A model generated the notes under the pieces. That model saw nothing but the letters and a program-made list of their open reading frames with translations, had not been told where the DNA came from and did no database searches. A stretch of 64,000 bases of DNA from Bacteroidales bacterium (GTDB lineage: Bacteria; Bacteroidota; Bacteroidia; Bacteroidales; B18-G4), in contig JAGYLD010000003.1 in the NCBI GenBank assembly GCA_018401355.1, positions 10,444-74,443 on the forward strand, in the 5' to 3' direction. Positions 1,355 to 25,593 of this stretch are shown piece by piece; position 1 is the first letter of the stretch; every line of letters starts with the position of its first letter. Both the position numbers and the translations under genes were made by a program.

Positions 1355-4345
1355 TTAATTTCCATAAACTATTTTTCCGGCTTTCCGGGCTTCCCCGGCC
1401 TGGATATGATAGAGGTATAATCCTCTGCCTGCCAAGCGTGATGGATGCCAATGAATTGTATGTTCGCCGGCTTGATAATGCTTATCAGTAATAACTTCTA
1501 TGAGCTGACCTGTAGAATTGAAAATTTCAATTCGCACATTACCAGACTCTCTGACATAAAAACTGATTTGCATGTTTTCCTTAAAAGGATTTGGGTAAAT
1601 ATGGGAGGAAATTGTATGGTTATCGTAAGAATCTTCTTCAATACCAGTAAGAATACCACCAAAGAACTCCAGGATTTCGATCATGAGTTCTTCCTTTGTC
1701 GATTGTCCATCTGATAGTCCGCCAAATTCAAATGATGATCCAATGGTTTTGTATGTACCGGGGTCATTAGCAATGCTACTACAATAATTAGGGACCTGGT
1801 TTCTGAATAATTCGAATGCATCTTTAGCAGTAGGTGTAATTATCATTCTGTCGATATATGAATTATCTCCTGTGTAATTAAATATCATCCCATTAACAAA
1901 AGAACCATTCTGTCCCAAAAGCAGTGCAAGGTCACTGTAACCATCCATTGTTCCTGTAATGCCAAACATTGGATGCACTGGTGTTTGATCGTCAAAGGCC
2001 CAGGTATCAGCACCTTCCATATATAACCTTCCATTGTTGTTGAGATAATCGGCCAGGGTTTGCCCTTCTGATTCAGTGAGTATATACTTATTGGGATAGG
2101 TTCCCAGGCACACAAAGATGCATTTGTATAGTTCCAGGTCATCAGGAAAATCAACCATCAGGCTAACGGGAAGATCTAATCCCTGTATAATAGAAGCCAT
2201 TGTTGGCCCGGAGTTGTGATTTCCGTCTTTGTCAACAATAAGAACAGGAAGTTGACCGACAGTAAACTCCATGTTGAAAGTATTGCTGTAAATGCCACTA
2301 TTGGCAACCACGTCCATTGTAAAATCAACGATCTCACCAGTAGGTGTTGAAGGATCTGCTGTAACCGTAAATGTTTCTGTGCCATTTTGTCCTTGCTGTA
2401 ATGTTCCGAATAAAGCCGTTCCCTGATCAATGGTGATATAAGATGATGTTGTAGATAGTGTTCCGGACACGTTGTTCGCAGTAACATTTCCAACGTTTGA
2501 GATGGTTACGATCATGTCAACTGTTTCGCCTGCATCTATTCTTCCATTATTGTTACCGGATGAGTCATCGATTTCACAGGAAGACATAAGAATAAATACG
2601 CCCCAGACATGTTCGAGGTCACTAACAGCGTCGAGGTCAAAGCCTGCATCGTTTCCACTGGCAGGGCCGTCGCCATCATCTTCTATTTTAAAGTATCTTG
2701 ATTGTGCTATCCCGTTGTCATAAAAATCAAATTCTGTTGTGCCCTCGCCTGTTCCAAGGAAAGTCCATGGGCCATCGATGGTAGGGCCGGCGTATATATC
2801 AAAACCTTCCTGGGTAAGGTCTCCTTCAAAAACTTTCAGGTCATTTCCAGGTTTATCCAGGATGGGTTTTTGCATATCGATGATTACGAAGCCGCCCCTG
2901 CCAAGGGAATAATTTACATTGTCGGGTTCACCAAGGATGGCGGGTATGTTGCCTTCGTCAGCGTGGTTGTTTCCCGGGATAACGCATGCAGGTACTTTGT
3001 AAACATATTGCCTTGGTGTATCCAGAGGTTCAAGTTGAAAGTCTGTTACGGTAACGTCAAGATCCTGAACAACCACATCAGTTACTTCCTGGCTTTCATA
3101 ACCACTGGCAATAACTTTAATTGTATATGTTCCAGAAATGAGGTATTTATGATAATCACCGGCAGTAGAATCAGTAAAAACGGGATAGCCATCATCAACA
3201 AAAACAGCAGCCTGGATGGGTTTTCCTGTATTGATATCGGTCACTGTTCCTTCGATACCATAACCGGAATATTCGATCATGGCAATCATAGAAGGATAAT
3301 TGTAGTTGTAATAAGTCATGATCTGAGAAGCTGGGGGCTGCTTGCTGTAAGAAATTTCCATAGACCAGCTTATGGATCCCATGGTACCGTAATTGCCGTC
3401 CTTTGTAGCACCATTGATGGGATACATACCGGAACTTCCCTGCCCATATTCCAGGTTGGCATAGCCTGAAACGGAAGAATAAACTCCTGCAAGGTGCAGG
3501 ATATGGTCCATGTCCGGTGGCGCATCGTATCGGTAACTCCAGGGGCATGAGATATATTCTGTACCACTGTGATACGTGGTGTGAACAACAAACTGATTGT
3601 TGTACATACAATCTCTGAGGGCCCTTGTTTCAATTTCAGCAAAAATTCCTGTGCTATTTCCTTCTCCATCCCACATATAACCCCAGTCCCTGTTTAGGTC
3701 AACACCATTACTGTTGTATCGTGACATGTTTACCCTGCCGTCAGGATTTACCATGTAAAAAATCCAAATTTCCCTGTTGTCAATAAGAAAAGTAATATCA
3801 GGGTCCGAGCCGTACTCTAGGCATAATTCCCTTGCAAAACGGATCGCATTTTCCGGGCCACCGATTTCGTCTCCATGAATTCCTGCATCAAAAAATACTT
3901 CTGCTTCTGCTTCATCAACAGTTACATTATCGCTGATCTTCAATGCGCCGAGCTCACGGCCTTCAACACTTGTACCATAAAGTATTTTGCTACATATATC
4001 CGGGAAGTTGTTGGCCAGGCTATCAGCGATATCAACAATTTCCTGATAAGAATGATAAGCATCCCTGTTATTGATCCAAAAGTTCCTATAATAATTATTC
4101 AGGTCTTTTTTTACAATTTTATATTGGATTCCTGAATTTTCCAGCATGGATAGTTCTTCAGGTGTGACATATGCCAATGCATGATCCTGATAATAATCTG
4201 CATTGATCCTTAAATTCTGCAATTCGGTGATGGAGTTATTATTATAATCAATGAACACTTCCATTTCATTAGGTCTCCAGCCATTCTGGGCGATGGTCAG
4301 GGAAGTGAAAAGTAAAAGGATAAGGAAGGCAGCAATCCGCTTCAT
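1355..4345 (-). CDS. Peptidase M14 zinc carboxypeptidase with CarboxypepD_reg-like and extra beta-rich domains and a T9SS type-A C-terminal sorting domain
   Basis: 996-aa ORF. Signal peptide MKRIAAFLILLLFTSLTIAQ. M14 motifs GIHGDEIGG (HxxE), NGVDLNRDWGYMWD and TTYHSGTE. IEGTVTDINTGKPIQ is a regulatory-like domain. The last ~80 aa (YPNPFKENMQISF...GLYLYHIQAG...KIVYGN) fit the Por_Secre_tail pattern. Confidence 0.9.
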   Translation of the reverse strand: MKRIAAFLILLLFTSLTIAQNGWRPNEMEVFIDYNNNSITELQNLRINADYYQDHALAYVTPEELSMLENSGIQYKIVKKDLNNYYRNFWINNRDAYHSYQEIVDIADSLANNFPDICSKILYGTSVEGRELGALKISDNVTVDEAEAEVFFDAGIHGDEIGGPENAIRFARELCLEYGSDPDITFLIDNREIWIFYMVNPDGRVNMSRYNSNGVDLNRDWGYMWDGEGNSTGIFAEIETRALRDCMYNNQFVVHTTYHSGTEYISCPWSYRYDAPPDMDHILHLAGVYSSVSGYANLEYGQGSSGMYPINGATKDGNYGTMGSISWSMEISYSKQPPASQIMTYYNYNYPSMIAMIEYSGYGIEGTVTDINTGKPIQAAVFVDDGYPVFTDSTAGDYHKYLISGTYTIKVIASGYESQEVTDVVVQDLDVTVTDFQLEPLDTPRQYVYKVPACVIPGNNHADEGNIPAILGEPDNVNYSLGRGGFVIIDMQKPILDKPGNDLKVFEGDLTQEGFDIYAGPTIDGPWTFLGTGEGTTEFDFYDNGIAQSRYFKIEDDGDGPASGNDAGFDLDAVSDLEHVWGVFILMSSCEIDDSSGNNNGRIDAGETVDMIVTISNVGNVTANNVSGTLSTTSSYITIDQGTALFGTLQQGQNGTETFTVTADPSTPTGEIVDFTMDVVANSGIYSNTFNMEFTVGQLPVLIVDKDGNHNSGPTMASIIQGLDLPVSLMVDFPDDLELYKCIFVCLGTYPNKYILTESEGQTLADYLNNNGRLYMEGADTWAFDDQTPVHPMFGITGTMDGYSDLALLLGQNGSFVNGMIFNYTGDNSYIDRMIITPTAKDAFELFRNQVPNYCSSIANDPGTYKTIGSSFEFGGLSDGQSTKEELMIEILEFFGGILTGIEEDSYDNHTISSHIYPNPFKENMQISFYVRESGNVRIEIFNSTGQLIEVITDKHYQAGEHTIHWHPSRLAGRGLYLYHIQAGEARKAGKIVYGN

Positions 4346-4550
4346 GATTCTTATATGAGTTTTAATTAAATAGTGGTAAAAAAAGGATTAAATAATCATT
4401 ATATTTTTCATAGCAAAACTATATAAAAAAACATCCTCCTAACTTAGAATTTGTTTAAATAATGAGCACTAATCCAATGGTTTCTTCAATTAGATCAGAC
4501 ATTAAGAAGTCAGGAAAGGTTGGCTGAGCGTGCAGGTTTAAATGTATAGT

Positions 4551-12524: not shown

Positions 12525-12530
12525 TAAAAA

Positions 12531-12552
12531 GGGACCGGATATGACCGGTCCC
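12531..12552. terminator. GC-rich hairpin between convergent queD and PKD/T9SS genes
   Basis: GGGACCGG-atatga-CCGGTCCC is a perfect 8-bp stem with a 6-nt loop, 6 nt after the queD stop. There is no clean U-tract (ttcccctt follows). Confidence 0.5.
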
Positions 12553-12650
12553 TTCCCCTTAACAGATTACCATGGGCATATGATATTTACTAGTTGATAA
12601 GGAGTTTTCTGCTATTTTTTTTCTCTGGTGAAATTGCCTGAAAATGCAAA

Positions 12651-13970
12651 TTATTTCACAAATTTTCTCGTTATTAACAAATTGCCATCCGGGTTGGTAA
12701 TGTTAAGTAAATAAACTCCCTGATTGAGATGCCCAACTTCCAGTTTTACAGGGTCATTTAGGTGAACCTGATTTATGATCTTTTCCAGGCATCTTCTACC
12801 TGTGATATCATAAACTGAAGCTTTCAGTTTTTCAGTATTGCTATATTTTATTGAAATGTTAATTTGATCTTTGGCGGGATTAGGATAAACATTCCCAGCC
12901 AAGATATTTTTTGAAGTTTCATCAATTCCATGGATATTACTCTCAAAAACTTCAACCATAACGGAGGTAATTGAGGGTTGGTTGTTTGAAAGTGTTATTT
13001 CAATTACTTCACTGTATTTGCCGGGGATTTCTGCCAGCAACCGATAGCTTCCCAGTGGAATCTGATTAAGGGTAAAGTACCCTGACAGATCAGCAAAGGA
13101 AAAATCAATGGCCTGGCCAGATTGATCTTGGAGTATCACACAGGCACCTTTTATATTAAAGTATTTGTCATATAAAGAGGGTTCAGAGTAAACTATTTGA
13201 CCACTAATGGAACCCGGGCCTGTAAGATTAGCATTGATTGGGATCATGTAAGTATCCAGGCTATAAGCATGAGTATCCAGCATGGTGATCAGATCAGCAT
13301 TTTGCCAGGTATAACTGTTATTAAAGTAAGTAGGAAGATAATTTTCTGAGTGTGTGGATTGATCGGATAATTTTATCCTGATGATATAATTACCCCCCAG
13401 AATTCCTGAAAACCAGAAATAACCGAGGTTCATGAAGATATTGGAGTCAACTACCTGAACTGTGTTGTTGCTTTTACGTCTGTAAAGGGTTGCAATTCCT
13501 GTGTCGCCTTCATGCACAGGGTTGTTGATGGGGCTTGATCCGGTGTATGCAAATCCTCCCATGAGGAAGTATTCAGGCATTGTTACAGGATAACAAATAC
13601 TGTCAAAACATCCTGTTGAATCGTTGGAGATAAGGAGGCAAACATTAAAGGTCCCTTCTTTATCAAACACATGTATTGGGTTTCGAACATTGCTTGTGTT
13701 TCCGTCATCAAATTCCCAATGCCATGAAGTAATGTTTCCTGAGGATTTATCTTTAAAAAAGAACCGGTAGGGTTGTGTTGAATTTGAATCTACCTGAAAA
13801 GAAAAGTCTGCTTCACAGGTTGGCAGTTCTGTTATGGTTATTTCTGCACTATCATCGTTGTAACCATTGTTGAGTGAATTGTAGCTCTGGGCAGTAACAT
13901 AAATCACATAATTTTTTTTAGAGAGAATAAAGGATGCAATAATTATTATAAGAAAATATATTTTCTTCAT
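12651..13970 (-). CDS. Secreted PKD-domain protein with CarboxypepD_reg/Cna-B-like domains and T9SS C-terminal sorting domain (cassette B cargo)
   Basis: 439-aa ORF with signal peptide MKKIYFLIIIIASFILS. The PKD-type segment is WHWEFDDGNTSNVRNPIHVFDKEGTFNVCLLISN. The C-terminus VYPNPAKDQINISI...GVYLLNITNPDG...RKFVK is a T9SS CTD pattern. Paralog of 15942..17591. Confidence 0.8.
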   Translation of the reverse strand: MKKIYFLIIIIASFILSKKNYVIYVTAQSYNSLNNGYNDDSAEITITELPTCEADFSFQVDSNSTQPYRFFFKDKSSGNITSWHWEFDDGNTSNVRNPIHVFDKEGTFNVCLLISNDSTGCFDSICYPVTMPEYFLMGGFAYTGSSPINNPVHEGDTGIATLYRRKSNNTVQVVDSNIFMNLGYFWFSGILGGNYIIRIKLSDQSTHSENYLPTYFNNSYTWQNADLITMLDTHAYSLDTYMIPINANLTGPGSISGQIVYSEPSLYDKYFNIKGACVILQDQSGQAIDFSFADLSGYFTLNQIPLGSYRLLAEIPGKYSEVIEITLSNNQPSITSVMVEVFESNIHGIDETSKNILAGNVYPNPAKDQINISIKYSNTEKLKASVYDITGRRCLEKIINQVHLNDPVKLEVGHLNQGVYLLNITNPDGNLLITRKFVK

Positions 13971-13982
13971 TTTTTTAATAAT

Positions 13983-15263
13983 TTAAGTAAAACCCGTCCT
14001 CAACCCAATACTATAGGGCATCCCGGAATTATAACCACCACCATTTTTATATACTGGATGGAAATATTGGGTAAAGACAGGTTCGAGTGAAAATTTAAGC
14101 TTTTTTGATAAAGTGTAATTCAATCCAAGTCCAAACATCCATCGGATGTTGGTTTTTAATCTTCCGGGATACAGTTTTTCAGTTGCTGTGATGGTGATAT
14201 CATTCGCTTTTATATCTGGATTTGGTTCGTCTTTATAAAGCATTAATGAAAAGATGACTCCGGTTCGCATTGAGAGTGAAAACCGGTTCTTTTCCCACAG
14301 GACAAACCCAAGGTTTAATGGGACCTGAAGGTAGAGATATTTGTTGGTCACCTGTTTTATGTCAATATGATCAATTGAATCATAAATTCCGGCTATTTTG
14401 AGATTAAATATGATTGAATCAGGATATTCAGGATGCATGCTGAATGATTGGACGTCGTAATAAAATCCAACGCTGTCGTAGCTTCTGTAAGAAACACTGG
14501 TATTTCCATGTTCTGTGAAATAACCAATTCCTATACCTGACTGGATAAAAAACCTGGATGGTTTATAATCGAAGGTAAATTCGAAAGCATAGTTATTTCT
14601 GTTGTCGCTTTTATCATAGTATGTTATTCCGGGGGTAAAGTGAGCTCCAAGAATAAATTCATTTTGCTTATAATATTGTTGTTTTTTCTGAGGGAGCAAG
14701 GGAGTGAGGTTTTCCTTATGGTTCGCAGAAATGTCAAACCCGGAAGAAATTAAATATTCAGGAATCAGGCCAGGTCCAATGCCGCTCAGGTAGAAAGGGG
14801 TAACCTTTTGGGCTAATTGATTACTTTGAATAATGGTATTTTCAGGACGATCAATTGCTGTGTTCTTATCGGGTTCTTTTTCTGTAATAAATATTTCTTT
14901 TGGAGTATTTACAACTGAATGTTTTTGTTTTGATTCTTCATTGTTGGTGATTGTTTCTGAAACTGTAGAATGATCAATATTGCCTGGGTTGCTCATACCT
15001 GCAGAAGAATGAGAATAAATTAGTGATTGAGGGTCAACAGGATGCTCAGTTGGATTTGAGAATATCAAAACGGTTGATATAGCTATGATGGCTGATCCCA
15101 GGATTAAAAACAATGGCCAGGTTCTTTTTAAGAAAATATTATTGAAACCGCCTTCACTTAAGCTCGTTTCAATGGCTGACCATGCGTTATCTGATGGTTC
15201 AATGGTGTTTCCATTGAGCGTATTCAGAATTATCTTGTCGACATTTTTTAATTCGTTACCCAT
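13983..15263 (-). CDS. Putative anti-sigma factor fused to a C-terminal outer-membrane beta-barrel-like domain (cassette B)
   Basis: 426-aa ORF overlapping the upstream ECF sigma gene by 8 nt. It has a ~48-aa N-terminal segment, then one TM helix WPLFLILGSAIIAISTVLIF (aa 49-68). An N/S/T/Q/P-rich linker follows. The last ~220 aa are alternating beta-strand-like sequence ending YSIGLRTGFT. Paralog of 17602..18858. Confidence 0.55.
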   Translation of the reverse strand: MGNELKNVDKIILNTLNGNTIEPSDNAWSAIETSLSEGGFNNIFLKRTWPLFLILGSAIIAISTVLIFSNPTEHPVDPQSLIYSHSSAGMSNPGNIDHSTVSETITNNEESKQKHSVVNTPKEIFITEKEPDKNTAIDRPENTIIQSNQLAQKVTPFYLSGIGPGLIPEYLISSGFDISANHKENLTPLLPQKKQQYYKQNEFILGAHFTPGITYYDKSDNRNNYAFEFTFDYKPSRFFIQSGIGIGYFTEHGNTSVSYRSYDSVGFYYDVQSFSMHPEYPDSIIFNLKIAGIYDSIDHIDIKQVTNKYLYLQVPLNLGFVLWEKNRFSLSMRTGVIFSLMLYKDEPNPDIKANDITITATEKLYPGRLKTNIRWMFGLGLNYTLSKKLKFSLEPVFTQYFHPVYKNGGGYNSGMPYSIGLRTGFT

Positions 15264-15828
15264 TTATATTATTTTGGACACTTTCTTTGATATAAGGTTG
15301 TATTTTTTTTCGTAAGTACTGCCTGGCCTTAAAAAGTTGTGTTTTGGATGTATTTACTGATACACCTAATTTATCAGCAATCTCTGCATGTGAATACCCT
15401 TCAAAAACAAACATGTTAAACACAAATCTGTAGCCTTCCGGCATATTTTGTACAATGGCTAATATTATCTCCTTATTAACCGGCAACTCCGGGTCAATCT
15501 CACGATCTTTCTCATTTGATAGTTGTTCATGGATTTCACTGATCTCCACATATCGCTGATGTTTTAAGTTTTTATGATAATGATTGATGGCGGTGTTGAT
15601 CATGATTCTTTTCATCCATCCCTCGAAAGAGCCTTCACTCCGGAAGCTTCCTATTTTATTATAGATCTTTATAAACCCTTCCTGGAGAATGTCTTCTGCT
15701 TCATTGATGTCGTTAGAGTACCGGGTACAAATCCCAAGCAAAACCGGGGCATATTTCCGGTACAGTTCCCGAAATGCCTTTCTGCTCCCCTTTCCGCACG
15801 CTTCAATTATTTTTTGATCTGACACCAT
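15256..15828 (-). CDS. ECF-type RNA polymerase sigma-70 family factor (cassette B)
   Basis: Region 2 reads EAEDILQEGFIKIY...GWMKRIMINTAINHY. Region 4 reads MPEGYRFVFNMFVFEGYSHAEIADKLGVSVNTSKTQLFKARQYL. I prefer the ATG at 15828 (MVSDQKIIEACG...), which aligns with the paralog's start, over the ORF-track start at 15885. Confidence 0.85.
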   Translation of the reverse strand: MVSDQKIIEACGKGSRKAFRELYRKYAPVLLGICTRYSNDINEAEDILQEGFIKIYNKIGSFRSEGSFEGWMKRIMINTAINHYHKNLKHQRYVEISEIHEQLSNEKDREIDPELPVNKEIILAIVQNMPEGYRFVFNMFVFEGYSHAEIADKLGVSVNTSKTQLFKARQYLRKKIQPYIKESVQNNING

Positions 15829-15890
15829 CAGCCAAGTACTAATGAATAGACAATTTGATTTAATGGAGGTTGTCTGAAAAACCATAAAAG

Positions 15891-15924
15891 AAAAAGCATC
15901 CTGTGTTTTTTCAAGATGCTTTTT
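15891..15924 (-). terminator. Hairpin separating the two sigma cassettes
   Basis: AAAAAGCATC-(14 nt)-GATGCTTTTT is a 10-bp inverted repeat flanked by A/T runs. It begins 17 nt downstream (minus strand) of the 15942 stop of the cassette A cargo gene. Confidence 0.5.
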
Positions 15925-15941
15925 CCGGTATTATTGGATTT

Positions 15942-17591
15942 TTAGTTATTGGTTATTATCAATTTTCTGGAGATTATAAAATTGTCCTCTGTTAAGAAAA
16001 GGACCTTATATATCCCTTCAGATAAACTGCCGGTACTAAGGTCAAGCCGGTTCATTCCTGGGAAGACCTGGTAAAGGTTTGATTTTACAAATTGGCCGGC
16101 AGTATTAATAATCTTTACATCAAGATGTGAATTTTTTAAAACCTCAATGTTAAGATAAGCCTTATCTTTACAAGGATTGGGATATATATCATATATTTTA
16201 TTGACAAAGGCAGATCCTGGTTCTACAATATCAAAAGTGATTTGGTCAGATAAAATTATAAGGATCAGGTCGTTGAAATTTGTATTGTTCGCATCCAATG
16301 TTACAATTGCAGGGATGGTATGTTTTCCCGGGATTTCCGCGTGAACTTTATAAGTTCCCAGTGGTAGTTGGTTAAATATAAAAGTTCCATCTGTTTCTGA
16401 TTCGAAATAATGGGCGCAGGTTCCTGAGTTTTCCATCAGCATTATTGATATGCCTTTTGCCGGTGAATTTCCAGGGTTTTCGCCACCACTGCCATAGGTT
16501 ATATTTCCCTGTATCAGCCCATTACCTGATTCACCATCTGTTTTCTTGATAAAGTTGATATCACATTCAAAATTGTTGTTTCTCAGGTTAACGATTTCGG
16601 CAACTTCCCAACTCAGGTGGTCGCCATGATAAGTGGGCAGGTATTGTCCGTAGTGTATCGAAGTGTTTTGCAATTGAACCCTACTCACATATTCACCTTC
16701 AAGGAGGTGATAGAAGTAGTAATATCCAAGGGTATCTATCCTGGCAGTATCGATGGGGGTCAGCTCATCTTTGTCATTGAACTTATAGAGGTAGGCGTAA
16801 CCAAAATCTATAGGGAAGCCACCGATCTTGGCATGTCCTCCAAGGTGAAAATACGCCTTGTCAATAACGTGAATAGCCTTGGTGATGGTACTTACGTCAA
16901 AGTAGTCATCATGGGTGATTTTATTTGAGATGGTGAGTGTTACATTATATACTCCGGGTTCATCATAAACATGTTGGGGGTTTTGTATGGCAGCAATATT
17001 TGTATTATCACCAAAATCCCATTCCCATGTTCTGATATTTTCTCCAATGGAGTTGTCATAAAAATTGTATAAAAGTTCTCCAACAACGACAGTATCCTTC
17101 AATGCGTAAAAACTTGCCTGAAAATCATTATTGGTTGCGGGGTCGAAAATTTCGATATCATCAACAACGATGTGAGCTTCATAGTCCCAATAGAATCTGA
17201 AATATTTTTGTTCTTTGTATTGCAGGTTATTTTCGTCGTATGTATATATTACAAGTGATCCCTGGTCGCAAGTTGTTTGAATTGTATCGAAGTAAAAACC
17301 GGATTCGTTAGTAATAACAGAGTCTGAATAAACAAATGAAGGATTGTAGGATATGTCTGATTGAATATAAACAGTTTGGTTGGGAACTGGCGCTCCGCTG
17401 GTTTCATTGGTTATCTGGCCGGAGATATATACATAGCCATATTCTGAACCATTGATCTGAGAGATGGCAAATTGAGGGAGGAGAAGCAAGAGGAAAAGCC
17501 AAATTCCTCCTGCGAAGAACACTTGCCTCAGTTCGCCGTAGCTCCTATGGCGATGTTCTGCAAGCCTAATTTTTCTGTTATACATCTTCAT
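15942..17591 (-). CDS. Secreted PKD-domain protein with CarboxypepD_reg/Cna-B-like domains and T9SS C-terminal sorting domain (cassette A cargo)
   Basis: 549-aa ORF. The PKD-type segment is WEWDFGDNTNIAAIQNPQHVYDEPGVYNVTLTISN. LPLGTYKVHAEIPGKH is paralogous to LGSYRLLAEIPGKY in 12651..13970. The C-terminus IYPNPCKDKAYLNIEV...GIYKVLFLTEDN...KLIITNN is a T9SS CTD pattern. Confidence 0.8.
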   Translation of the reverse strand: MKMYNRKIRLAEHRHRSYGELRQVFFAGGIWLFLLLLLPQFAISQINGSEYGYVYISGQITNETSGAPVPNQTVYIQSDISYNPSFVYSDSVITNESGFYFDTIQTTCDQGSLVIYTYDENNLQYKEQKYFRFYWDYEAHIVVDDIEIFDPATNNDFQASFYALKDTVVVGELLYNFYDNSIGENIRTWEWDFGDNTNIAAIQNPQHVYDEPGVYNVTLTISNKITHDDYFDVSTITKAIHVIDKAYFHLGGHAKIGGFPIDFGYAYLYKFNDKDELTPIDTARIDTLGYYYFYHLLEGEYVSRVQLQNTSIHYGQYLPTYHGDHLSWEVAEIVNLRNNNFECDINFIKKTDGESGNGLIQGNITYGSGGENPGNSPAKGISIMLMENSGTCAHYFESETDGTFIFNQLPLGTYKVHAEIPGKHTIPAIVTLDANNTNFNDLILIILSDQITFDIVEPGSAFVNKIYDIYPNPCKDKAYLNIEVLKNSHLDVKIINTAGQFVKSNLYQVFPGMNRLDLSTGSLSEGIYKVLFLTEDNFIISRKLIITNN

Positions 17592-17601
17592 AATCCTTCA
17601 T

Positions 17602-18858
17602 TTAAAAGTTGAATAACAGGCCAGCCCTGACGCCTGCGGAATAAGTATGCTTTGAACGAATGTAAGATCGTTCATAAGCTGATGTCAGATAGTATCTGAA
17701 CACAGGTTCGAAGGAAAGGCTGACCCTTTTATGAATCCGGTAATTGATCCCGGCTCCCAAAACAAATTGCACATTAGAGCTTACCCTTTGTGGTTGTTTG
17801 TTTTCATTGAGCGCAAGAAGAATATCCTGATCTGTTATGTTTACTTCGGGAATATTTTTATGTACCAGGAATGCAAAGGAAGGTCCACCCTTTACAAACC
17901 ATGAAATACGCTTATAGTCTTTCTTAAATCCGATCAGCAATGGAATTTCCAGATATGTATATTTATTCTTTGTTGGATGATATGATTCTGACACTGAATC
18001 GTAAACATCTTCAGGGCTGGTATGATAGGTTGGGATAACCCCGTTTTCGGTTGAATCGAAGGTAACTTCATAGACATCGTCATAAGTTCCAAGATATTTC
18101 TGGTAATCATATGAATATCCTCCCTGGTCTTTGGAGAAGTTAAGTCCCAATCCTGTTTCAACAAAGAAATCTGAAAAATGTAATGCTGCACTTAAATCGA
18201 ACCTGTAAGAATTTTGGTTGTTGATGTTATCCTCGGGATAGAACATAACCTCAGGGCTGAAATGCACACCCATGACTAATTCTGGTCTGGCCCTGTAGTT
18301 TTGGATGTTACCACTCAGACTATTATAGGTTGGTTTTAAGTTTTGATTATCAGCATGTATGTTCGGCTTATCATTTTCAGCAAGAATTTTGCGTGAGCTC
18401 AAATTACCCATGGTAAAGACCCTGATGTTTTCCCTTGCACTGGGTTTTTCTTCACTTACCAGCGATGGGAATGATTTTCCAAATCCCGTTTGAGGTCCTG
18501 CAGGATTTTCATTTTGGAGGCTAATATCGGTTGTATTTATGCTTTGAGCTGGTATGGTTACAGGATTTGTGTTTTGATATGCTGTATTATCTTGTGATGT
18601 AGCGATATTTTGATTTTTTTGAATAGAATTTGCAGGTTGGATATTTTCCTGTTTGATGGTATTTATTCCCAGCATCAATGCTATCAGGATAATGGCTGCA
18701 ATGGAGGCCAGTGAAACGGGATTGCTAAAGAGCGTTCCGGAATTATTACCCGGGATATTCGCTTTTATCCTATCCCATATGTATTCGGGCGGTTGGGCTT
18801 CGAACGATTGAAATCTGTTACGAAAGACTTCATCCATATGTTTGGAATCTCTGTTCAC
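17602..18858 (-). CDS. Putative anti-sigma factor fused to a C-terminal outer-membrane beta-barrel-like domain (cassette A)
   Basis: 418-aa ORF overlapping the upstream sigma gene by 4 nt. The N-terminus is ...FEAQPPEYIWDRIKANIP, followed by a TM helix VSLASIAAIILIALMLGI. An N/Q/S/T/P-rich linker follows. The C-terminal beta-strand region ends AGVRAGLLFNF, an OMP-type terminal aromatic signature. Confidence 0.6.
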   Translation of the reverse strand: MNRDSKHMDEVFRNRFQSFEAQPPEYIWDRIKANIPGNNSGTLFSNPVSLASIAAIILIALMLGINTIKQENIQPANSIQKNQNIATSQDNTAYQNTNPVTIPAQSINTTDISLQNENPAGPQTGFGKSFPSLVSEEKPSARENIRVFTMGNLSSRKILAENDKPNIHADNQNLKPTYNSLSGNIQNYRARPELVMGVHFSPEVMFYPEDNINNQNSYRFDLSAALHFSDFFVETGLGLNFSKDQGGYSYDYQKYLGTYDDVYEVTFDSTENGVIPTYHTSPEDVYDSVSESYHPTKNKYTYLEIPLLIGFKKDYKRISWFVKGGPSFAFLVHKNIPEVNITDQDILLALNENKQPQRVSSNVQFVLGAGINYRIHKRVSLSFEPVFRYYLTSAYERSYIRSKHTYSAGVRAGLLFNF

Positions 18859-19391
18859 GGGTTTTTGGTTTTGTTGATCTTCATCTGTAAAACATTTCGG
18901 GCTCTTGAGAGCTGTGACTTGGAGGTGTTTTCTGAAATATCAAGGTAATCTGCAATTTCCTTGTGTGTATAACCTTCGATCACGGATAAGTTGAAAACCA
19001 TTCTGTATCCATCAGGCAGAGCTTGTACCAGTTTAAGTAACTCATCATTCGACATCCGGTCAATGGCGGTTTCCTCATCTGCATTGGGAATGTCGGTATG
19101 ATCGATGTCCATCTCATTCATTTTCTTAAGGTTTTTCTTATAGAAATTGATGGCGGTATTGATCATTGTTCTCCTTATCCAACCTTCTAAAGAACCTTCA
19201 TTTTTAAAATCCTTCAGGTAAGTAAATATTTTAATAAAGCCATCCTGAAGAACATCCTCTGCTTCCATTTTATTTCTGGTAAAACGCAAGCAAATCCCAA
19301 ACATCTTTGGTGCAAAAAACCTGTAAAGCTCCGCTTGGGCGTTGGAGTCATTTTCCAGGCAACGTTTTATGAGTTTCTCTTCGTTTAGCAT
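18855..19391 (-). CDS. ECF-type RNA polymerase sigma-70 family factor (cassette A)
   Basis: 178-aa ORF. Region 2 reads EAEDVLQDGFIKIF...GWIRRTMINTAINFY. Region 4 reads LPDGYRMVFNLSVIEGYTHKEIADYLDISENTSKSQLSRARNVL. Confidence 0.88.
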   Translation of the reverse strand: MLNEEKLIKRCLENDSNAQAELYRFFAPKMFGICLRFTRNKMEAEDVLQDGFIKIFTYLKDFKNEGSLEGWIRRTMINTAINFYKKNLKKMNEMDIDHTDIPNADEETAIDRMSNDELLKLVQALPDGYRMVFNLSVIEGYTHKEIADYLDISENTSKSQLSRARNVLQMKINKTKNP

Positions 19392-19693
19392 TAAGTTATG
19401 GCTTCCAAGTTTTTGGCAAACAATAATTCCCGGGGAATTTGCTTTTTGCCTCCCTTTACCTACTGAAAAACTTAATTAGTAAAGGTACAAAAAAAACCAT
19501 AACTACGTCAACACAGGATACATTTAACCCTCAAAAGAGAGGATGTATTCCCTAACGTTTTGTGCATCAAAAAACTAAGACATGCACCTTTTGAACACAC
19601 AATTAAGACAACGGATTCATTGAAATGGTTGCACTTCAATCACGGGATAAGAAAATTAAATCATTCCTCACAGGAAATAATGATGAAAGATTC

Positions 19694-22600
19694 TCAATAT
19701 TTGTTTTTGCCAGCCAGTTTATTAATCTTCAATTTACCAATGTAAAGGATGTGGTACATTGAAGGCACGATGATCAGTGTCAGAAATGTTGCGAATGAAA
19801 GTCCAAAGATAATGGTCCAGGAAATAGGACCCCAATATGCAACATTATCACCACCAAAATAGATGTTGGGGTTAAAGTCTTTTAGCAGTCCGATGATGTC
19901 GATATTGAGTCCTATGGCTAAAGGCAACAATCCAAGAATGGTTGTGATGGCAGTGAGCAATACGGGCCTCAACCTGGTTGTTCCTCCTTCCAAAATGCAA
20001 TCTGTTGAATCTGTAATTGATAGCAATGAGTCTGATTTCATACCCAGTTGCTTTCTTTTTCTCTTTTTCAGGAGGTCAATGAAATCAATCAGCACAATAG
20101 CATTATTAACGACCACTCCGGCAAGGGAAACAATTCCTATTCCTGTCATGATCACAATAAAATCCATTCGGAACGTACTCAATCCACCGAATACACCTAT
20201 AGTACTGAACAATACACTAACAAGTATGATTAATGGTTTTACAACGGAATTGAATTGTGTAACCAGGATAATCAGGATCAGGGATAATGCAATGAGCAGG
20301 GCTCTTTCCAGGAATGCCATAGATTCGGCCATTTCTTCCTGTTCCCCGGTAAACTTGTAAAGATATCCGGCAGGCATTTCAAAATCTGTCAGGATGGCTT
20401 TTATCTGATTATTTATTTCGGTGGCGTTATAACCTTCAATTACATTTGAATAAATGGTGATGACCCTTTCCCGGTCTTTTCGTTTAACTTCACCATAGGT
20501 TGTACTGTAAGTAATATCGGCCACGGCAGAAATTGGTACCTGGACGATTTTACCATTCGACTGATTTCTGAAGGTTACCCTTTGATTAAGCAGGGCTGAA
20601 ATATCGTGGCGGAAATTTTCACCAAGCCTTAGTTGAATTGGGTATTCATCCTCACCTACTTTATAATCAGATATTTCCTGTCCAAACAACGCTGTTCTTA
20701 TGGTAGAGGCTATTTGTCCTGTAGACAGGCCAAAACGCCTTGCTTTGTCCCTGTTTATACTGAGTATGATTTCAGGTTTTCCAATATCAAGATCAATTTT
20801 TAAACCCTCAATTCCTTCAATTTTTGCTGATTCAATAAGGTTTTGAATAGTATCAGTAAGGTAAAGTAGTTTATCAAAGTCTCTTCCACTTACTTCAAGG
20901 TTGATTGGTTTTCCTGCAGGTGGTCCTTCAGAGGGCTTTGCAACTGATATTTGAATACCGGGATAATTTCCTAACAAAGCTTCTGAAAGATCAACCAATG
21001 CGTCTTCTGAATCCAGGTCTCCTCGTTTTTCAAAGTCGACAAAGTTAATGGTGATAAGTCCTCTGTTCAACTGCTCAGATAAGTCAAAATACTCATCTTC
21101 AGCCCTTGCTCCACTGCCCACTGTAACCAAAACATCCTTTACTATTGGCTTATAAGGTTTCAGGATATCAAAGACTTTATTTTCTATTTCCAGCATGAAT
21201 TCGTTGGATGCGTCGATATCCGTACCAATAGGTCCTTCGGCAAGAATATTAATATAGTTTGGAGGACTTTCCGGGAAAAAGAGCATTTTGGGATTTGTCC
21301 CGAAATAGAATACCACAGTTATTAATAGAAGCAGAAATGTTCCACCTACAAAATAAAACGGATTGTATTTTCTGAGAACAAATTGCAGAATACGAATGTA
21401 AAACCTTTCCAGCCATATAAGGAATTTATTCCTAAACCACTTTGATGCCGGGTAAAACAGGAAAATATTGAAGATTCCAATTATTCCAAAAATTAGCAAC
21501 AGGGATCCAGGGACATTGGCCTTTAAAACAATGAATAATACGGCTACAACTATCATGATTCCGGCAATAACCAGAGATCTTCTTTTGTTCAGTGGTTTTT
21601 CAAGTTCACTTCTCTTAATAAACGAGGAGGAAACCACAGGAATGATGATCAGGGCAACAAACAGTGAGGATGTCAGCACAATGATCAGCGTCATCGGCAG
21701 GTATTTCATAAATTCTCCGACCATGGAGTCCCAGAAGAGCAATGGGAAGAAGGCAGCCAGGGTAGTGGCTGTTGATGTTATGATTGGTAAAGCAATTTCA
21801 CCGACAGCATATTTGGCTGCATCATGTTTGGAGTATCCTTTGTCGATGAAACGGTAAATGTTTTCAACTACAACGATGGCGTTATCAACGAGCATACCAA
21901 GGGCCAGGATCAATGAAAAAAGAACGATCATATTGATCCTTGTGTCCATGAGGCCAAGCACCATAAAAGAAAGAAACATAGATGTTGGAATGGCAAAGCC
22001 GACGAACAATGCATTTCTTGTTCCCAGGAAGAAATATAGCACCAGGATGACAAAGATCACCCCCATGATCATGCTGTTTTCAAGGTTGGAGAGTTGTTTT
22101 CTTACGATATCAGATTGATCCTGAGTGATAGAAATGTTCAGGTTCTCGGGTATGGCATTTACTCTTTTTGCTGTTTCAATTACTTCAAAGACCTGATCGG
22201 TTGCAGCGAGAAGGTTCTCTCCTCCCTTTTTGATCACCTGCAAGGTGACAACGGGATGCCGGTCTAGTCTGGTGTAACTTTTGGGCTCTTCAAAACCATA
22301 TATAACCTCGGCAACATCCTTTAAATAAACGATCTTATTATCTTCGCTTTTAATGATGATGTTTTCTATTTCCCGTGGATTGGTAAACTCACCCATGATC
22401 CTTATGGACCTCCTGTTATCTCCAAGTTTAATTTCCCCACCAGACATAGATACATTTTCGCTGGCAACGGCATTTTCTATATCACCAAAACCAAGTTCAA
22501 CAGCTGTAAGCTTATACGGATCAACATTGATCTGCATTTCCCTTTCATTGATCCCAATAATTTCAACTTTACTTATTTCAAATATCCTTTCAATCTCATC

Positions 22601-23119
22601 TTCAAGATATTCGGCATATCTTTTCAGCTCATTCAAGCTGAAATCACCAGACAGGTTTACATTGATGATGGGAAATTCTGAAAAGTCAATGTCTGTAACA
22701 ATGGGGTCATCCAACAGGTTATCCGGCAACTCACTTTTTGCCTTGTCGACAGCATCTTTTACATCCTGCAGGGCTTTATTGAGGTCAACATCGGTATTGA
22801 ATTCAACGAAAATGGCACTTATATCCTGAGAGGATGTAGATTGGATCTCATTGATTCCTTTAATGGATTCTATTTCCTTTTCCAGTGGCCGGGTGATCAG
22901 GTTCTCTATGTCAACAGGCGGGTTGCCCGGATATATCGTTTGAACCATCACCGTGGGCATGACAATATCAGGAAAAAGTTCTTTTGGCAATGAACGGTAA
23001 GAATACATCCCAAAAATCAATAATACCAGTACAAGAAGATAGACCGTATTTTTATTTTTCAGAGCAAGACTGGTAGGCTTGAATTCTCTGATTACTTTTT
23101 TGGTTTCGCTTTTTTCCAT
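19694..23119 (-). CDS. RND efflux transporter permease subunit (AcrB/CzcA superfamily)
   Basis: 1141-aa ORF with the 12-TM, two-large-loop architecture. Typical strings include NAIVVVENIYRF and GVVVNNAIVLIDFI. Its start overlaps the upstream adaptor stop by 1 nt (TAATG). Confidence 0.9.
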   Translation of the reverse strand: MEKSETKKVIREFKPTSLALKNKNTVYLLVLVLLIFGMYSYRSLPKELFPDIVMPTVMVQTIYPGNPPVDIENLITRPLEKEIESIKGINEIQSTSSQDISAIFVEFNTDVDLNKALQDVKDAVDKAKSELPDNLLDDPIVTDIDFSEFPIINVNLSGDFSLNELKRYAEYLEDEIERIFEISKVEIIGINEREMQINVDPYKLTAVELGFGDIENAVASENVSMSGGEIKLGDNRRSIRIMGEFTNPREIENIIIKSEDNKIVYLKDVAEVIYGFEEPKSYTRLDRHPVVTLQVIKKGGENLLAATDQVFEVIETAKRVNAIPENLNISITQDQSDIVRKQLSNLENSMIMGVIFVILVLYFFLGTRNALFVGFAIPTSMFLSFMVLGLMDTRINMIVLFSLILALGMLVDNAIVVVENIYRFIDKGYSKHDAAKYAVGEIALPIITSTATTLAAFFPLLFWDSMVGEFMKYLPMTLIIVLTSSLFVALIIIPVVSSSFIKRSELEKPLNKRRSLVIAGIMIVVAVLFIVLKANVPGSLLLIFGIIGIFNIFLFYPASKWFRNKFLIWLERFYIRILQFVLRKYNPFYFVGGTFLLLLITVVFYFGTNPKMLFFPESPPNYINILAEGPIGTDIDASNEFMLEIENKVFDILKPYKPIVKDVLVTVGSGARAEDEYFDLSEQLNRGLITINFVDFEKRGDLDSEDALVDLSEALLGNYPGIQISVAKPSEGPPAGKPINLEVSGRDFDKLLYLTDTIQNLIESAKIEGIEGLKIDLDIGKPEIILSINRDKARRFGLSTGQIASTIRTALFGQEISDYKVGEDEYPIQLRLGENFRHDISALLNQRVTFRNQSNGKIVQVPISAVADITYSTTYGEVKRKDRERVITIYSNVIEGYNATEINNQIKAILTDFEMPAGYLYKFTGEQEEMAESMAFLERALLIALSLILIILVTQFNSVVKPLIILVSVLFSTIGVFGGLSTFRMDFIVIMTGIGIVSLAGVVVNNAIVLIDFIDLLKKRKRKQLGMKSDSLLSITDSTDCILEGGTTRLRPVLLTAITTILGLLPLAIGLNIDIIGLLKDFNPNIYFGGDNVAYWGPISWTIIFGLSFATFLTLIIVPSMYHILYIGKLKINKLAGKNKY

Positions 23120-24243
23120 TATTTAACCTTTATTTCAGATCCGTCAGAAATAAGATTATACCCTTCCGTTATCACCATATCTCCGGAACTTAGCCCTTCC
23201 TTTACTTCCGTAAGGTCTTTATATGAGATTCCGGTTTCTATGTAAACTTTCTTTGCAACATAGCTGTTAGGGGAATCAGCCACCTTATATATATACTTTC
23301 CCTTCATGTCTTCTTTGACAATTATGGAAGGAATTACCAAAGCGTTATCTGTTGAGTAATCATTGATGGTGATGATGGACAAAATATTTGGTTTAAGTTT
23401 TTCTTCCTGGTTTTTAATTTTTAACTGCATGTTGAAAGTGCGGTTCATTGGGTTGATAACATTTCCAACACGATGAACTTTTTCCTGGAGGGTGATATTT
23501 GGATAAGAGGGGAAAGTAACAAAAACTTCTTCGCCTTCCTTAACATCTGAAAGGTATCTCTCTGCAATATCTGCATTGATATACAATTCATCAAGGTTTA
23601 CGACCTGCATGATTTGAACTCCCGGAACAGCCAGTTCACCCTCTTTCAAAAAAATCTCATCAACTATCCCAACTATTGGTGAGGTTATGTAAGCCATCTC
23701 CAACTGTGCTTCGAGTGTTTTGAGTCTTGTTTCAAGGGATTCTTTCCTGTTTTTGGCTTCCAGGAATTGCACTTCAGAACCAATATTTTTATCCCAGAGT
23801 TGTTTTTGTTTCTCATACAATGTTTTTGCAAGTTCCAAAGAGGTCTTGACTTCCTCTATGTTGTTTTCTGTGACACTTGTACTCAATTTTACAAGTTTTT
23901 GACCTTTTGATACCCTTTGACCTTCAGTCACGTATAATAGCTTTATTTGTCCACTGATTTCAGGACTAATAAAGGCTTCATTAATGGATTCAACTGTTCC
24001 TGAAGCTTCAAAGAAATGCCGGAATGGTTGAGGTTTCACCGTATCAACCCTTACCAGGATGCTATTGTCTTTTTGTTCTCCTGATAATTCAATAAACTGC
24101 TTTTCAAGTATTACATTTTCATGGTTAAGTTCGGCGATTTTATCCTTATTGCTTTTGATCTTCTCTTTGATCTTGTCAGCTTCATTTCCTGATTGACAAG
24201 AGGCCAGAAAGGCAATGACAATTAAAAAGATTAATTTTTTCAT
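23119..24243 (-). CDS. RND efflux periplasmic adaptor (membrane fusion protein, HlyD family)
   Basis: 374-aa ORF with a lipoprotein-type signal (LASCQ). It has a coiled-coil hairpin region (LELAKTLYEKQKQLWDK...LEAQLEMAY) plus beta-barrel segments. It sits between TolC-like and RND genes. Confidence 0.85.
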   Translation of the reverse strand: MKKLIFLIVIAFLASCQSGNEADKIKEKIKSNKDKIAELNHENVILEKQFIELSGEQKDNSILVRVDTVKPQPFRHFFEASGTVESINEAFISPEISGQIKLLYVTEGQRVSKGQKLVKLSTSVTENNIEEVKTSLELAKTLYEKQKQLWDKNIGSEVQFLEAKNRKESLETRLKTLEAQLEMAYITSPIVGIVDEIFLKEGELAVPGVQIMQVVNLDELYINADIAERYLSDVKEGEEVFVTFPSYPNITLQEKVHRVGNVINPMNRTFNMQLKIKNQEEKLKPNILSIITINDYSTDNALVIPSIIVKEDMKGKYIYKVADSPNSYVAKKVYIETGISYKDLTEVKEGLSSGDMVITEGYNLISDGSEIKVK

Positions 24244-24246
24244 CGA

Positions 24247-25593
24247 TTAATTCCTATTTAATAGTTTTTCAAGTTCCAGTTTTCTTTCCAGCAGATCCAG
24301 GATGGAAATCATCAGGTCTGATTCAGATACAAGGAATTGATTATGAGCCTGTAAAAGATCAAGGCTTGATGCAAGGCCTTCTTTAAATTTTATGGTTGTT
24401 TTCCTGAATATTTTTTCTGCCGTTTCAAGGCTGCCGGCTTTGTTCTGAAATACAAGGTAAGCGTTAGTAAAATCTGTTTTGGCCTGGTTTGCCTGAATGG
24501 TCAATCCTGTTTTTAATTGATCATCAAGTGTTTGGACCTTCTCCAGATTAAGTTTTTCCTGCTGTACTCTGGAAGATCTGTAACCTGAACTCCAGATGGG
24601 AATATTCATTTCAATACCCAGGATACTGGTTGGGAACCATACGCCCTGGCTGTCGAAAAAGTCCCATTTGTTTCTCTGAGCCTGTGACTGATAGGTCATA
24701 AAAGCATTCAGTGTTGGATAATATTCAGATTTAGCGGCTTTTAGTTTCATTAACGCAAGTTCTTCCTGAGTTTTAAGAATTTTATAGTTAATGTTATTGT
24801 TGTAGTCAAATTTCTCATTGACGAGGGCAGTATGATTTACATTCTTTAGAATTTCATCAATGCTGTTGGTTAATACAATGGAATCATTGAGTTTGAGTCC
24901 AAGGATAAACTTCAGGTAGCTGTATGCAAGCTCAGTTTGGTTTTCCGATGTGATCACGGAGGCTTCGAGGTCTGCCACAATGAGCTCAAGTTGATCGACA
25001 TCAGTATCTTCAAGAAATCCTGCTTTATGAGTTTCCCTGGTTTCATAAAGCATATGTTTCATTTTCTTCAGGGTTGTATCCAATATTTTATTGTTTTCCT
25101 CTGAAACCAGCACCGTTGTGTAAGCAAGGCTGACTTCTTTTTCGATGTCCAGCTCTTTACTCCGGTATTCTTTTTGTGATTTGTCAACCAGCTTTTTTGA
25201 AGCCTGAACTCCCAGGATATATCTTCCATCAAAAAGCAGCTGGTTCAGTATGATCTCTCCATAACCGGTATATTTAGTTCCAAACTGGACCTTCTGTTCA
25301 GGAGATCCTGGTCCGAATGATCCTTCAGGGATAATAAATGTTGGTCTTGCCAGATAATCGTTATAGGCAATATTGGCATTAAGCTGTGGAAACCCAGCTG
25401 ATAAATATTCTTTTACAGTTTTTCTTGCAATCTCAATGTCTTTTATGGAGTTGATAAGGTCATAATTATGTTCGAAAGCAAATTGCCTGGCTTCTTTTTC
25501 ACTTAACCGGTATATTTCCTGGGAAAACAAGCATGGTTTGCTAAAAAATGACAGGAGTACAGTTAAAGCAATAAGGAAATAGCTTTTCTTCAT
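24247..25593 (-). CDS. TolC-family outer membrane efflux protein
   Basis: 448-aa ORF with a signal peptide and two internally repeated helical/beta halves typical of the OEP family. It is first of the three efflux structural genes. Confidence 0.8.
   Translation of the reverse strand: MKKSYFLIALTVLLSFFSKPCLFSQEIYRLSEKEARQFAFEHNYDLINSIKDIEIARKTVKEYLSAGFPQLNANIAYNDYLARPTFIIPEGSFGPGSPEQKVQFGTKYTGYGEIILNQLLFDGRYILGVQASKKLVDKSQKEYRSKELDIEKEVSLAYTTVLVSEENNKILDTTLKKMKHMLYETRETHKAGFLEDTDVDQLELIVADLEASVITSENQTELAYSYLKFILGLKLNDSIVLTNSIDEILKNVNHTALVNEKFDYNNNINYKILKTQEELALMKLKAAKSEYYPTLNAFMTYQSQAQRNKWDFFDSQGVWFPTSILGIEMNIPIWSSGYRSSRVQQEKLNLEKVQTLDDQLKTGLTIQANQAKTDFTNAYLVFQNKAGSLETAEKIFRKTTIKFKEGLASSLDLLQAHNQFLVSESDLMISILDLLERKLELEKLLNRN

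Follow-up and report, generated by a model that had tools for sequence, protein, structure and literature searches.

Can one polypeptide reach from a sigma factor bound in the cytoplasm, through the periplasm, to a barrel in the outer membrane? This question is raised by two paralogous genes in a 64,000-nt stretch (the window) of contig JAGYLD010000003.1 from an uncultured environmental Bacteroidales bacterium. Each of the two lies directly downstream of a gene for an extracytoplasmic function (ECF) sigma factor, the position usual for an anti-sigma factor. An earlier note on this DNA had proposed that the encoded proteins are envelope-spanning chains, and had named an ordinary outer-membrane barrel with an atypical export signal as the alternative. 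We find that the two proteins, which we call Dma-like A and Dma-like B, are probably single-chain regulators. As in the model published for the Dma proteins of Bacteroides, each would bind a sigma factor on the cytoplasmic side and be linked by a flexible tether across the periplasm to a small barrel inserted in the outer membrane. Judging by the match to the architecture described for Dma1, Dma2 and Reo, they appear to be uncharacterised members of the same kind from uncultured Bacteroidales.

The earlier note considered this topology unusual, but it is already known, having been published for Bacteroides between 2022 and 2024. An anti-sigma factor of P. vulgatus was predicted in 2022 to span the periplasm and end in an outer-membrane barrel (Evans et al.; PMC9308784), and the topology was established in 2024 with Dma1 and Dma2 of B. 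thetaiotaomicron (Pardue et al., PNAS; PMC10927553). The hypothesis of the note is the published Dma model almost verbatim, its contrast with FecA/FecR included. The class is defined by an N-terminal sigma-binding segment, one transmembrane helix, a long disordered tether and a C-terminal 8-stranded barrel of the OMP_b-brl_2 type. Its members are encoded beside an ECF21 sigma factor and are restricted to Bacteroidota, with homologs of Dma1 in 27 of the 29 Bacteroidota examined (PMC10927553). Residues 1-40 of Dma1 pull down the sigma factor Das1, full-length Dma1 in membranes bears both its N-terminal and its C-terminal tag, and outer-membrane vesicles (OMVs) contain only the Dma1 barrel (PMC10927553). 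Dma2 shares the four parts, and the four-part definition has been repeated (PMC13088901). For Reo, found in B. fragilis and P. vulgatus, a chain that extends through all five compartments has been described (PMC13114119).

The list of open reading frames (ORFs) shows that the genes in question belong to two tandem three-gene modules, A and B, both on the minus strand. Each module encodes an ECF sigma factor, a Dma-like protein and a surface protein secreted by the type IX secretion system (T9SS); all coordinates are collected in Table 1. Both Dma-like ORFs lie where the note had placed them, and every string that it quoted is present. The translational coupling to the sigma gene is likewise real: the GTG of Dma-like A overlaps the TGA of sigma A by 4 nt (GTGA), and the ATG of Dma-like B overlaps the end of the sigma B gene by 8 nt (ATGGGTAA). 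An NCBI-derived copy of Dma-like A (P0001, 411 aa) begins at Met8 (window position 18837). We favour the GTG start at 18858, because residues 1-8 are conserved among homologs and because of the GTGA overlap with the sigma stop. The two Dma-like proteins align from end to end with 24% identity (BLASTP, E 1e-32). Sigma A scores 98.9 bits against the NCBIfam model sigma70-ECF (cut-off 42.9), and its nearest solved structures are the ECF factors SigH, SigE and SigW; sigma B is matched by Pfam Sigma70_r2 and Sigma70_r4_2. The surface protein genes begin 10 nt (A) and 12 nt (B) past the Dma-like stop codons. Pfam and NCBIfam scans of the six module proteins gave no match to FecR, Plug, TonB_dep_Rec or STN.

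At the N-terminus, the stretch preceding the hydrophobic segment comprises 46-50 polar residues in both paralogs, and we agree with the note that it is too long and too polar for the n-region of a signal peptide. An alignment of 54 family members, which was also the input for the AlphaFold2 (AF2) model of Dma-like A, shows that the N-terminal 36 residues are conserved as a module. W28 is invariant, D9, F16, P23 and P24 are each conserved at 90% or above, and the consensus reads D-x2-F-R-x-K/R-F-x2-F-E-x2-P-P-x2-V/I-W-x2-I. Two helices are predicted here in both proteins (residues 8-16 and 25-34 in A, 6-18 and 25-37 in B). Residues 1-46 of A and B contain no Cys, which the HxxxCxxC motif would require, and gave no zf-HC2 match in Pfam; this sets them apart from the zinc-binding class I anti-sigma factors (ZAS). 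As a lead, the module may resemble a minimal class II anti-sigma domain of the CnrY type (CnrY/CnrH structure), in which a short N-terminal segment of about two helices, lacking a zinc site, is proposed to be enough to bind the sigma factor. No sequence similarity to such domains was detected, and a PDB sequence search with the N-terminus and transmembrane helix (residues 1-70) returned nothing meaningful. From the pulldowns of Das1 with Dma1(1-40) we infer that the N-module binds its cognate sigma factor and holds it at the cytoplasmic side (PMC10927553).

The single hydrophobic helix that the note had described is also present. Each protein has one segment of transmembrane length, with a Kyte-Doolittle (KD) 19-residue mean of 2.49 in A (residues 47-65) and 2.51 in B (residues 51-69), and all other hydropathy windows in the two proteins are at or below 1.0. 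AF2 models the segment as a helix in both paralogs, with a length of 20-23 residues. The position of the helix is conserved among the 54 aligned proteins, whereas its sequence is not. Among 216 homologs there is a positive-inside bias, with a mean of 2.04 Lys plus Arg in the 15 aa before the helix versus 1.27 after it; this bias is seen in 127 proteins and its opposite in 46.

Beyond the helix, the note had described a low-complexity linker of 130-150 aa. Its low-complexity character stands, since N, Q, S, T and P make up 43-47% of the segment (47% in A) and it is predicted to be disordered, but its length had been overestimated: it is about 125 aa in A and about 125-130 aa across the two paralogs. 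The linker runs to about residue 190-200 and is modelled in both proteins with a predicted local distance difference test score (pLDDT) below 50 and without secondary structure over some 120 residues (residues 69-186 in B). It is the least conserved region of the protein, with a majority fraction of 0.22, and could not be aligned among the 54 members. In the 216 homologs S, N, E, T, K and P are abundant in it, Cys is absent and its length ranges from 110 to 267 aa (median 149), never falling below 110. This floor of 110 residues suggests a physical constraint imposed by the width of the periplasm.

The remainder of each chain bears out the note's description of a β-structured C-terminal region of about 220 aa with an end typical of outer-membrane proteins (OMPs). 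The last ~225 aa comprise eight segments with strict dyad alternation: the mean KD value is +1.2 to +2.6 on one face and -0.5 to -2.1 on the opposite face. Turns predicted to lie in the periplasm have only 2-4 residues (SD, KR, IHKR), and the outer loops are long. Structure prediction, which the note had proposed as a check for a closed barrel, yielded a barrel in both paralogs: a closed small barrel at residues 193-417 of A (pLDDT mostly >90), and one at residues 202-425 of B (pLDDT >90). Foldseek searches of the PDB matched these models to 8-stranded OMPs, namely NspA, OmpA, Ail, OmpX, OmpW and PagL for A (E 1e-6 to 1e-4; target TM-score up to 0.71) and OmpA, OmpW, NspA, Ail and PagL for B. 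Dma-like A ends in GLLFNF, and Dma-like B ends in LRTGFT, with F in the penultimate position. A terminal F is found in 132 of the 216 homologs, and 162 have an aromatic residue within the last three positions. Precomputed annotations assign PF13568 (OMP_b-brl_2) to most homologs, and Dma1 is annotated likewise (PMC10927553). We also considered filing the window proteins as PorG or PorT and rejected this, as the NCBIfam matches to PorG, PorT and PagL were all far under the cut-offs.

The resemblance to the OmpA N-domain, OmpX, NspA, Ail, OmpW and PagL (a clan that includes PF13505 and PF13568) covers the fold, the amphipathicity of the strands, the short periplasmic turns, the long outer loops and the C-terminal aromatic residue. 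Unlike the window proteins, however, these small 8-stranded OMPs have a cleaved signal peptide and lack a cytoplasmic segment, an inner-membrane anchor and a tether of 110-270 aa.

One feature of the barrel stands out: strands 3 and 4 are joined by a long β-hairpin that is nearly invariant. In Dma-like A it is formed by the strands that DSSP assigns to residues 231-270 and 273-315, and the same long hairpin occurs at residues 238-325 of B. It is the most conserved part of the protein, with a majority fraction of 0.68 versus 0.38-0.65 for the membrane strands, and it also exceeds the putative sigma-binding module; its motif is LGTY[ED]DVYxVTFDSTENG[VI]IPTYHT..V.VYD. In 8-stranded OMPs the termini and the short turns are periplasmic. 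By this usual topology rule the hairpin is expected to face the cell exterior. Being both conserved and predicted to be surface-exposed, it is a candidate sensing site.

How widespread is this four-part chain? A single-sequence search of a word-indexed protein collection recovered 92 homologs, nearly all full length, and a profile search of the same collection (8000 candidates scored) found nothing past the close family. A hidden Markov model (HMM) search of 1.84 billion cluster representatives returned 21,973 matches at E<=1e-3, 6,379 at E<=1e-10 and 637 at E<=1e-30, and the best 150 of these all match end to end. The complete architecture is present in 216 of the 236 retrieved proteins, with the helix starting at residue 34-61; the remainder are mostly fragments. 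No sigma-fused forms like Dma3 occurred among the longer homologs. Public records name these proteins merely "outer membrane beta-barrel protein", "porin family protein" or "hypothetical".

To see the genes in context, we used a genome scan keyed on the short hairpin motif [DH]VYx[VI]TFD[ST]T, which on its own retrieved 56 loci. All are in metagenome-assembled genomes (MAGs) and represent the close subfamily only, with no B. thetaiotaomicron locus among them. Of these loci, 53 are labelled Bacteroidales, Bacteroidota or Bacteroidetes, two Chlorobiota (L013, L037) and one Desulfocapsa (L008). The modules in the latter three are typical of the Bacteroidales set, and their labels may be binning or labelling errors rather than signs of spread outside Bacteroidota. 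Across the 56 loci and the Chitinophagales family described below, the design appears to be restricted to Bacteroidota. An ECF sigma gene adjoins the Dma-like gene in all 53 loci that reach upstream (the other 3 of the 56 end there), and in every one of the 56 the next gene after the Dma-like gene encodes a homolog of the protein with PKD, CarboxypepD_reg and T9SS C-terminal domains. At least 39 of these loci also have a second module in tandem behind the first. Many MAGs keep the six-gene order of sigma A, Dma A, cargo A, sigma B, Dma B and cargo B (for example L001, 5441..12970), and the duplication is therefore old. In several loci cargo B is encoded by a longer or a split gene, compared with that of the window.

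The four-part chain recurs in a more remote family of Chitinophagales proteins (P0098). The gene of its member P0275, on a 1.98-Mb contig, shares 14 nt with the end of an ECF sigma gene, and the genes that come after it are unrelated. In profile-profile comparisons with the window family, the barrels match with a probability of 97.8% (E 8e-13) and the N-modules with an hhalign probability of 95.2% (E 2.7e-8; reversed control 1.8%). Because both ends of the chain are homologous between the two families, the fusion is old and widespread in Bacteroidota. The Chitinophagales relatives that we inspected do not have the long hairpin, and the hairpin and the T9SS partner mark one subfamily. In a Chitinophagales genome (L057, 2957..6827), the homologous sigma/Dma-like pair is preceded by a SusC/SusD pair and followed by genes for a 410-aa protein with a faint LVIVD match and a 191-aa protein without a Pfam match. 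The third operon gene therefore varies by lineage, being NigD, BT_1557, the T9SS cargo or an LVIVD-like protein.

We weighed three other explanations for the Dma-like proteins. The one that survives best is that the chain is a pro-protein with two separate functions: the tether would be cut constitutively soon after export, leaving an anti-sigma stub and an independent barrel that serves, for example, as a partner or anchor of the T9SS surface protein, and no signal would travel along the chain. The invariant co-encoded T9SS cargo does hint at a surface role, the barrel has a weak likeness to the T9SS barrels PorG (E 7e-4) and PorT (E 0.02), far under the cut-offs, and Dma1 gives rise to C-terminal fragments of ~20 kDa and 17 kDa in a growth-phase-dependent manner (PMC10927553). 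On the other hand, full-length Dma1 dominates in exponential phase (PMC10927553), and the fusion is kept in 216 of 216 full-length homologs as well as in a distant order. Such universal retention argues that the physical linkage matters, and we regard a constitutively split pro-protein as improbable.

A Sec signal peptide has a short n-region and an h-region of about 7-15 residues, and the mature barrel begins soon after the cleavage site. The alternative named in the note, that of an ordinary outer-membrane barrel, would make the helix a cleaved, atypical signal of this sort, the N-terminal region and linker dispensable, and the neighbouring sigma gene a matter of co-regulation only. It would fit the bona fide small-OMP fold found by Foldseek, the public annotations as "outer membrane beta-barrel protein" or "porin family protein" and the existence of barrel-only C-terminal fragments of Dma1 (PMC10927553). 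It fits poorly with most of the chain, however. The 46-50 aa before the helix are conserved, predicted to be helical and homologous across orders, unlike signal-peptide n-regions; the hydrophobic stretch is 20-23 residues rather than 7-15; and a linker of at least 110 aa is kept between helix and barrel in all 216 full-length homologs. In addition, the Dma-like gene overlaps the sigma gene in both paralogs and in the distant family, and full-length Dma1 keeps its N-terminal FLAG tag (PMC10927553). We favour one envelope-spanning polypeptide over an ordinary barrel with an odd signal, on the grounds of the N-module, helix length, tether and barrel fold, and we give the ordinary barrel very little credence; the AF2 models, the Foldseek matches, the amphipathic strands and the 216 full-length homologs are all consistent with the four-part architecture. 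Equally hard to credit is a conventional anti-sigma factor anchored in the inner membrane alone, with a soluble or peripheral periplasmic β-domain as its sensor: although this is the layout of most ECF anti-sigma factors, and although the handover of an inner-membrane-anchored protein to the β-barrel assembly machinery (BAM) is unresolved even for Dma1 (PMC10927553), all eight strands have a strongly hydrophobic face, the fold matches solely integral outer-membrane barrels, most homologs carry the C-terminal aromatic signature, and the Dma1 barrel is recovered in OMVs (PMC10927553).

Some observations do weigh against the window proteins being single-chain regulators of the Dma kind. Both stay below threshold in Pfam and NCBIfam (PF13505 E 0.029, PorG 19 bits). 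Their sigma factors do not reach the thresholds set for TIGR02985 and NF058625, two NCBIfam models specific to Bacteroidetes; sigma B, for instance, scores 113.7 bits against TIGR02985 (Bacteroidetes ECF subfamily), for which the cut-off is 126.4. In protein A, the helix is flanked by only a weak charge bias. Lastly, the Dma1 barrel also occurs as a separate fragment (PMC10927553), so perhaps only part of the molecules bridge both membranes at any one time.

If the single-chain reading is correct, the experiments with Dma1 and Reo, together with general ECF biology, suggest how the system would work. The anti-sigma factor would be made as a single chain, whose conserved two-helix N-terminus of about 40 aa keeps the sigma factor on the cytoplasmic side of the inner membrane. 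A single helix would anchor the chain in that membrane with the N-terminus inside, the disordered tether of at least 110 residues would span the periplasm, and the C-terminal 8-stranded barrel in the outer membrane would expose the long conserved hairpin to the outside of the cell. A disturbance of the outer membrane or surface would be sensed by the barrel, in this case probably by its hairpin, upon which proteolysis of tether and anchor would release the sigma factor. The freed sigma factor would then transcribe its own operon from CAACC-N15/16-TGTCT, giving more sigma factor, anti-sigma factor and surface protein together.

In FecA/FecR/FecI signalling, by comparison, the corresponding roles are divided between two proteins, a 22-strand TonB-dependent transducer and FecR. 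The window system would be similar in that an ECF sigma factor kept at the inner membrane is governed by information arriving from the outer membrane or surface, with release by regulated proteolysis expected. It differs from FecA/FecR in being a single chain that ends in an 8-strand barrel, and it does not imply energy coupling through TonB.

The likeness to Dma1/Das1 (BT_4721/BT_4720), Dma2/Das2 (BT_1558/BT_1559) and Reo/EcfO is much closer. It includes the four-part chain with a sigma-binding segment of ~40 aa, a three-gene operon in which the gene comes straight after that for an ECF sigma factor, the restriction to Bacteroidota and the presence of more than one paralogous system per genome. 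There are also differences. The third gene of the window modules encodes a T9SS-secreted PKD/CarboxypepD_reg protein, where the Dma1 system has a NigD lipoprotein and the Dma2 system BT_1557; the window barrel has the long hairpin; and the window modules are adjacent in tandem. Moreover, the host is an uncultured environmental Bacteroidales, so neither an OMV role nor a gut-toxin role is to be assumed. What is new here is the occurrence of members in an environmental Bacteroidales lineage with a T9SS cargo partner, a conserved hairpin and tandem modules with distinct promoter variants. The Dma-like design is abundant in uncultured environmental Bacteroidales, and the invariant T9SS partner suggests outputs and signals unlike those of the OMV/NigD circuit of B. 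thetaiotaomicron. One speculative extension, which we think unlikely though worth stating, is a T9SS-linked Dma variant in which the hairpin contacts the co-encoded PKD/CarboxypepD_reg surface protein and the tandem modules act as insulated channels, each with its own promoter variant. If so, the chain would report to a cytoplasmic sigma factor on the presence, loss or ligand state of the surface protein, or on the integrity of the T9SS or surface layer.

Do the modules carry promoters of their own? A candidate ECF-type promoter precedes each sigma gene (Table 1). In related loci, CAACC-N14-17-GTCT is found within 300 nt upstream of 75 of the 89 sigma genes; just 82 matches occur on the plus strand in 597 kb, and 75 of the 82 are those upstream of a sigma gene. 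A-type copies read TGCAACC(A/T)TTT...TTGTCT and lie 198-256 nt upstream of the ATG in most loci, or 52-57 nt upstream in a divergent subgroup (L050-L054). B-type copies read (A/G)GGCAACC-N15-(A/T)GTCT in most loci and lie 43-48 nt upstream of 27 of the 32 B-type sigma genes. This pattern points to positively autoregulated ECF sigma factors, of which it would be expected. The flanks of the promoter are paralog-specific in most loci, which suggests two insulated circuits. Because the candidate promoter is conserved, it allows regulon prediction in genomes without genetics. A generic sigma-70 promoter scan was disregarded, since the 26 sites found against 25 expected are at chance level.

Terminator-like hairpins after each third gene make modules A and B look like separate operons, and equivalents of the module A hairpin are visible in related loci (e.g. 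L031, L033-L035). They also bear on the start of sigma B. The full 209-aa ORF would run through the terminator hairpin and candidate promoter (15829..15885), and the alignment to sigma A and homologs starts at MVSDQK (Met20); the start at 15828 is more likely on both counts.

Table 1. Features of modules A and B in the window (aa, amino acids; functional assignments are predictions).
Feature	Position	Strand	Basis or description
Candidate ECF-type promoter, module A	19606..19631	-	gtGCAACC-N16-TGTCTta; motif match
Long 5' leader, module A	19392..19605	-	Module A motif ~215 nt upstream of sigma A start
ECF sigma factor A	18855..19391	-	178 aa; Pfam Sigma70_r2 E 7e-13, Sigma70_r4_2 E 6e-17
Dma-like A	17602..18858	-	418 aa, GTG start
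Dma-like A residues 1-46, predicted cytoplasmic sigma-binding segment	18721..18858	-	Conserved N-terminal module
Dma-like A residues 47-66, single inner-membrane helix	18661..18720	-	KD 19-residue mean 2.49, AF2 helix
Dma-like A residues 67-190, disordered periplasm-crossing tether (predicted)	18289..18660	-	pLDDT <50, no secondary structure
Dma-like A residues 191-418 plus stop, 8-stranded outer-membrane β-barrel (OMP_b-brl_2 type)	17602..18288	-	AF2, Foldseek
Dma-like A residues 246-300, long β-hairpin between strands 3 and 4, predicted extracellular loop L2	17959..18123	-	AF2/DSSP
T9SS-secreted surface protein A	15942..17591	-	549 aa; signal peptide, PKD, CarboxypepD_reg, Por_Secre_tail C-terminal domain (Pfam, NCBIfam)
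Intrinsic-terminator-like hairpin closing module A	15889..15926	-	15-bp stem, then T tract
Candidate ECF-type promoter, module B	15848..15872	-	agACAACC-N15-TGTCTat; motif match
ECF sigma factor B	15256..15828	-	Probable 190-aa form, from Met20 of 209-aa ORF 15256..15885
Dma-like B	13983..15263	-	426 aa; N-module 1-44, transmembrane helix 45-67, disordered linker 68-200, barrel 201-426
T9SS-secreted surface protein B	12651..13970	-	439 aa; PKD, CarboxypepD_reg, Por_Secre_tail
Intrinsic-terminator-like hairpin closing module B	12526..12557	-	13-bp stem, 7 GC pairs, then T tract

The long leader of module A has counterparts elsewhere, the distance from promoter to ATG being ~200-255 nt in most related loci. 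The segment 19392..19600 folds more stably than shuffled sequences (z = -3.0). An Rfam scan of the locus found no family matching the leader, giving only a chance-level snoRNA match. The leader also holds a stretch that resembles a Bacteroidetes housekeeping promoter (ttttttttgtacctttac). Upstream of the module A promoter motif lies a complete resistance-nodulation-division (RND) efflux operon encoding an outer-membrane factor, a membrane-fusion protein and an AcrB-type pump (19694..25593, minus strand), which ends 62 nt before the motif. A fourth match to the motif, at 24045..24070 on the plus strand, is antisense within the membrane-fusion gene of this operon and probably arose by chance. 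A third copy, CAACC-N16-TGTCT at 4497..4522 (minus strand), is situated ~150 nt upstream of ORF 1355..4345 on the same strand. This ORF encodes a 996-aa T9SS-secreted M14 zinc carboxypeptidase with Peptidase_M14, CarboxypepD_reg and Por_Secre_tail domains. With ~1.6 motif matches per window expected by chance, its gene is only a lead as a possible further member of the regulon.

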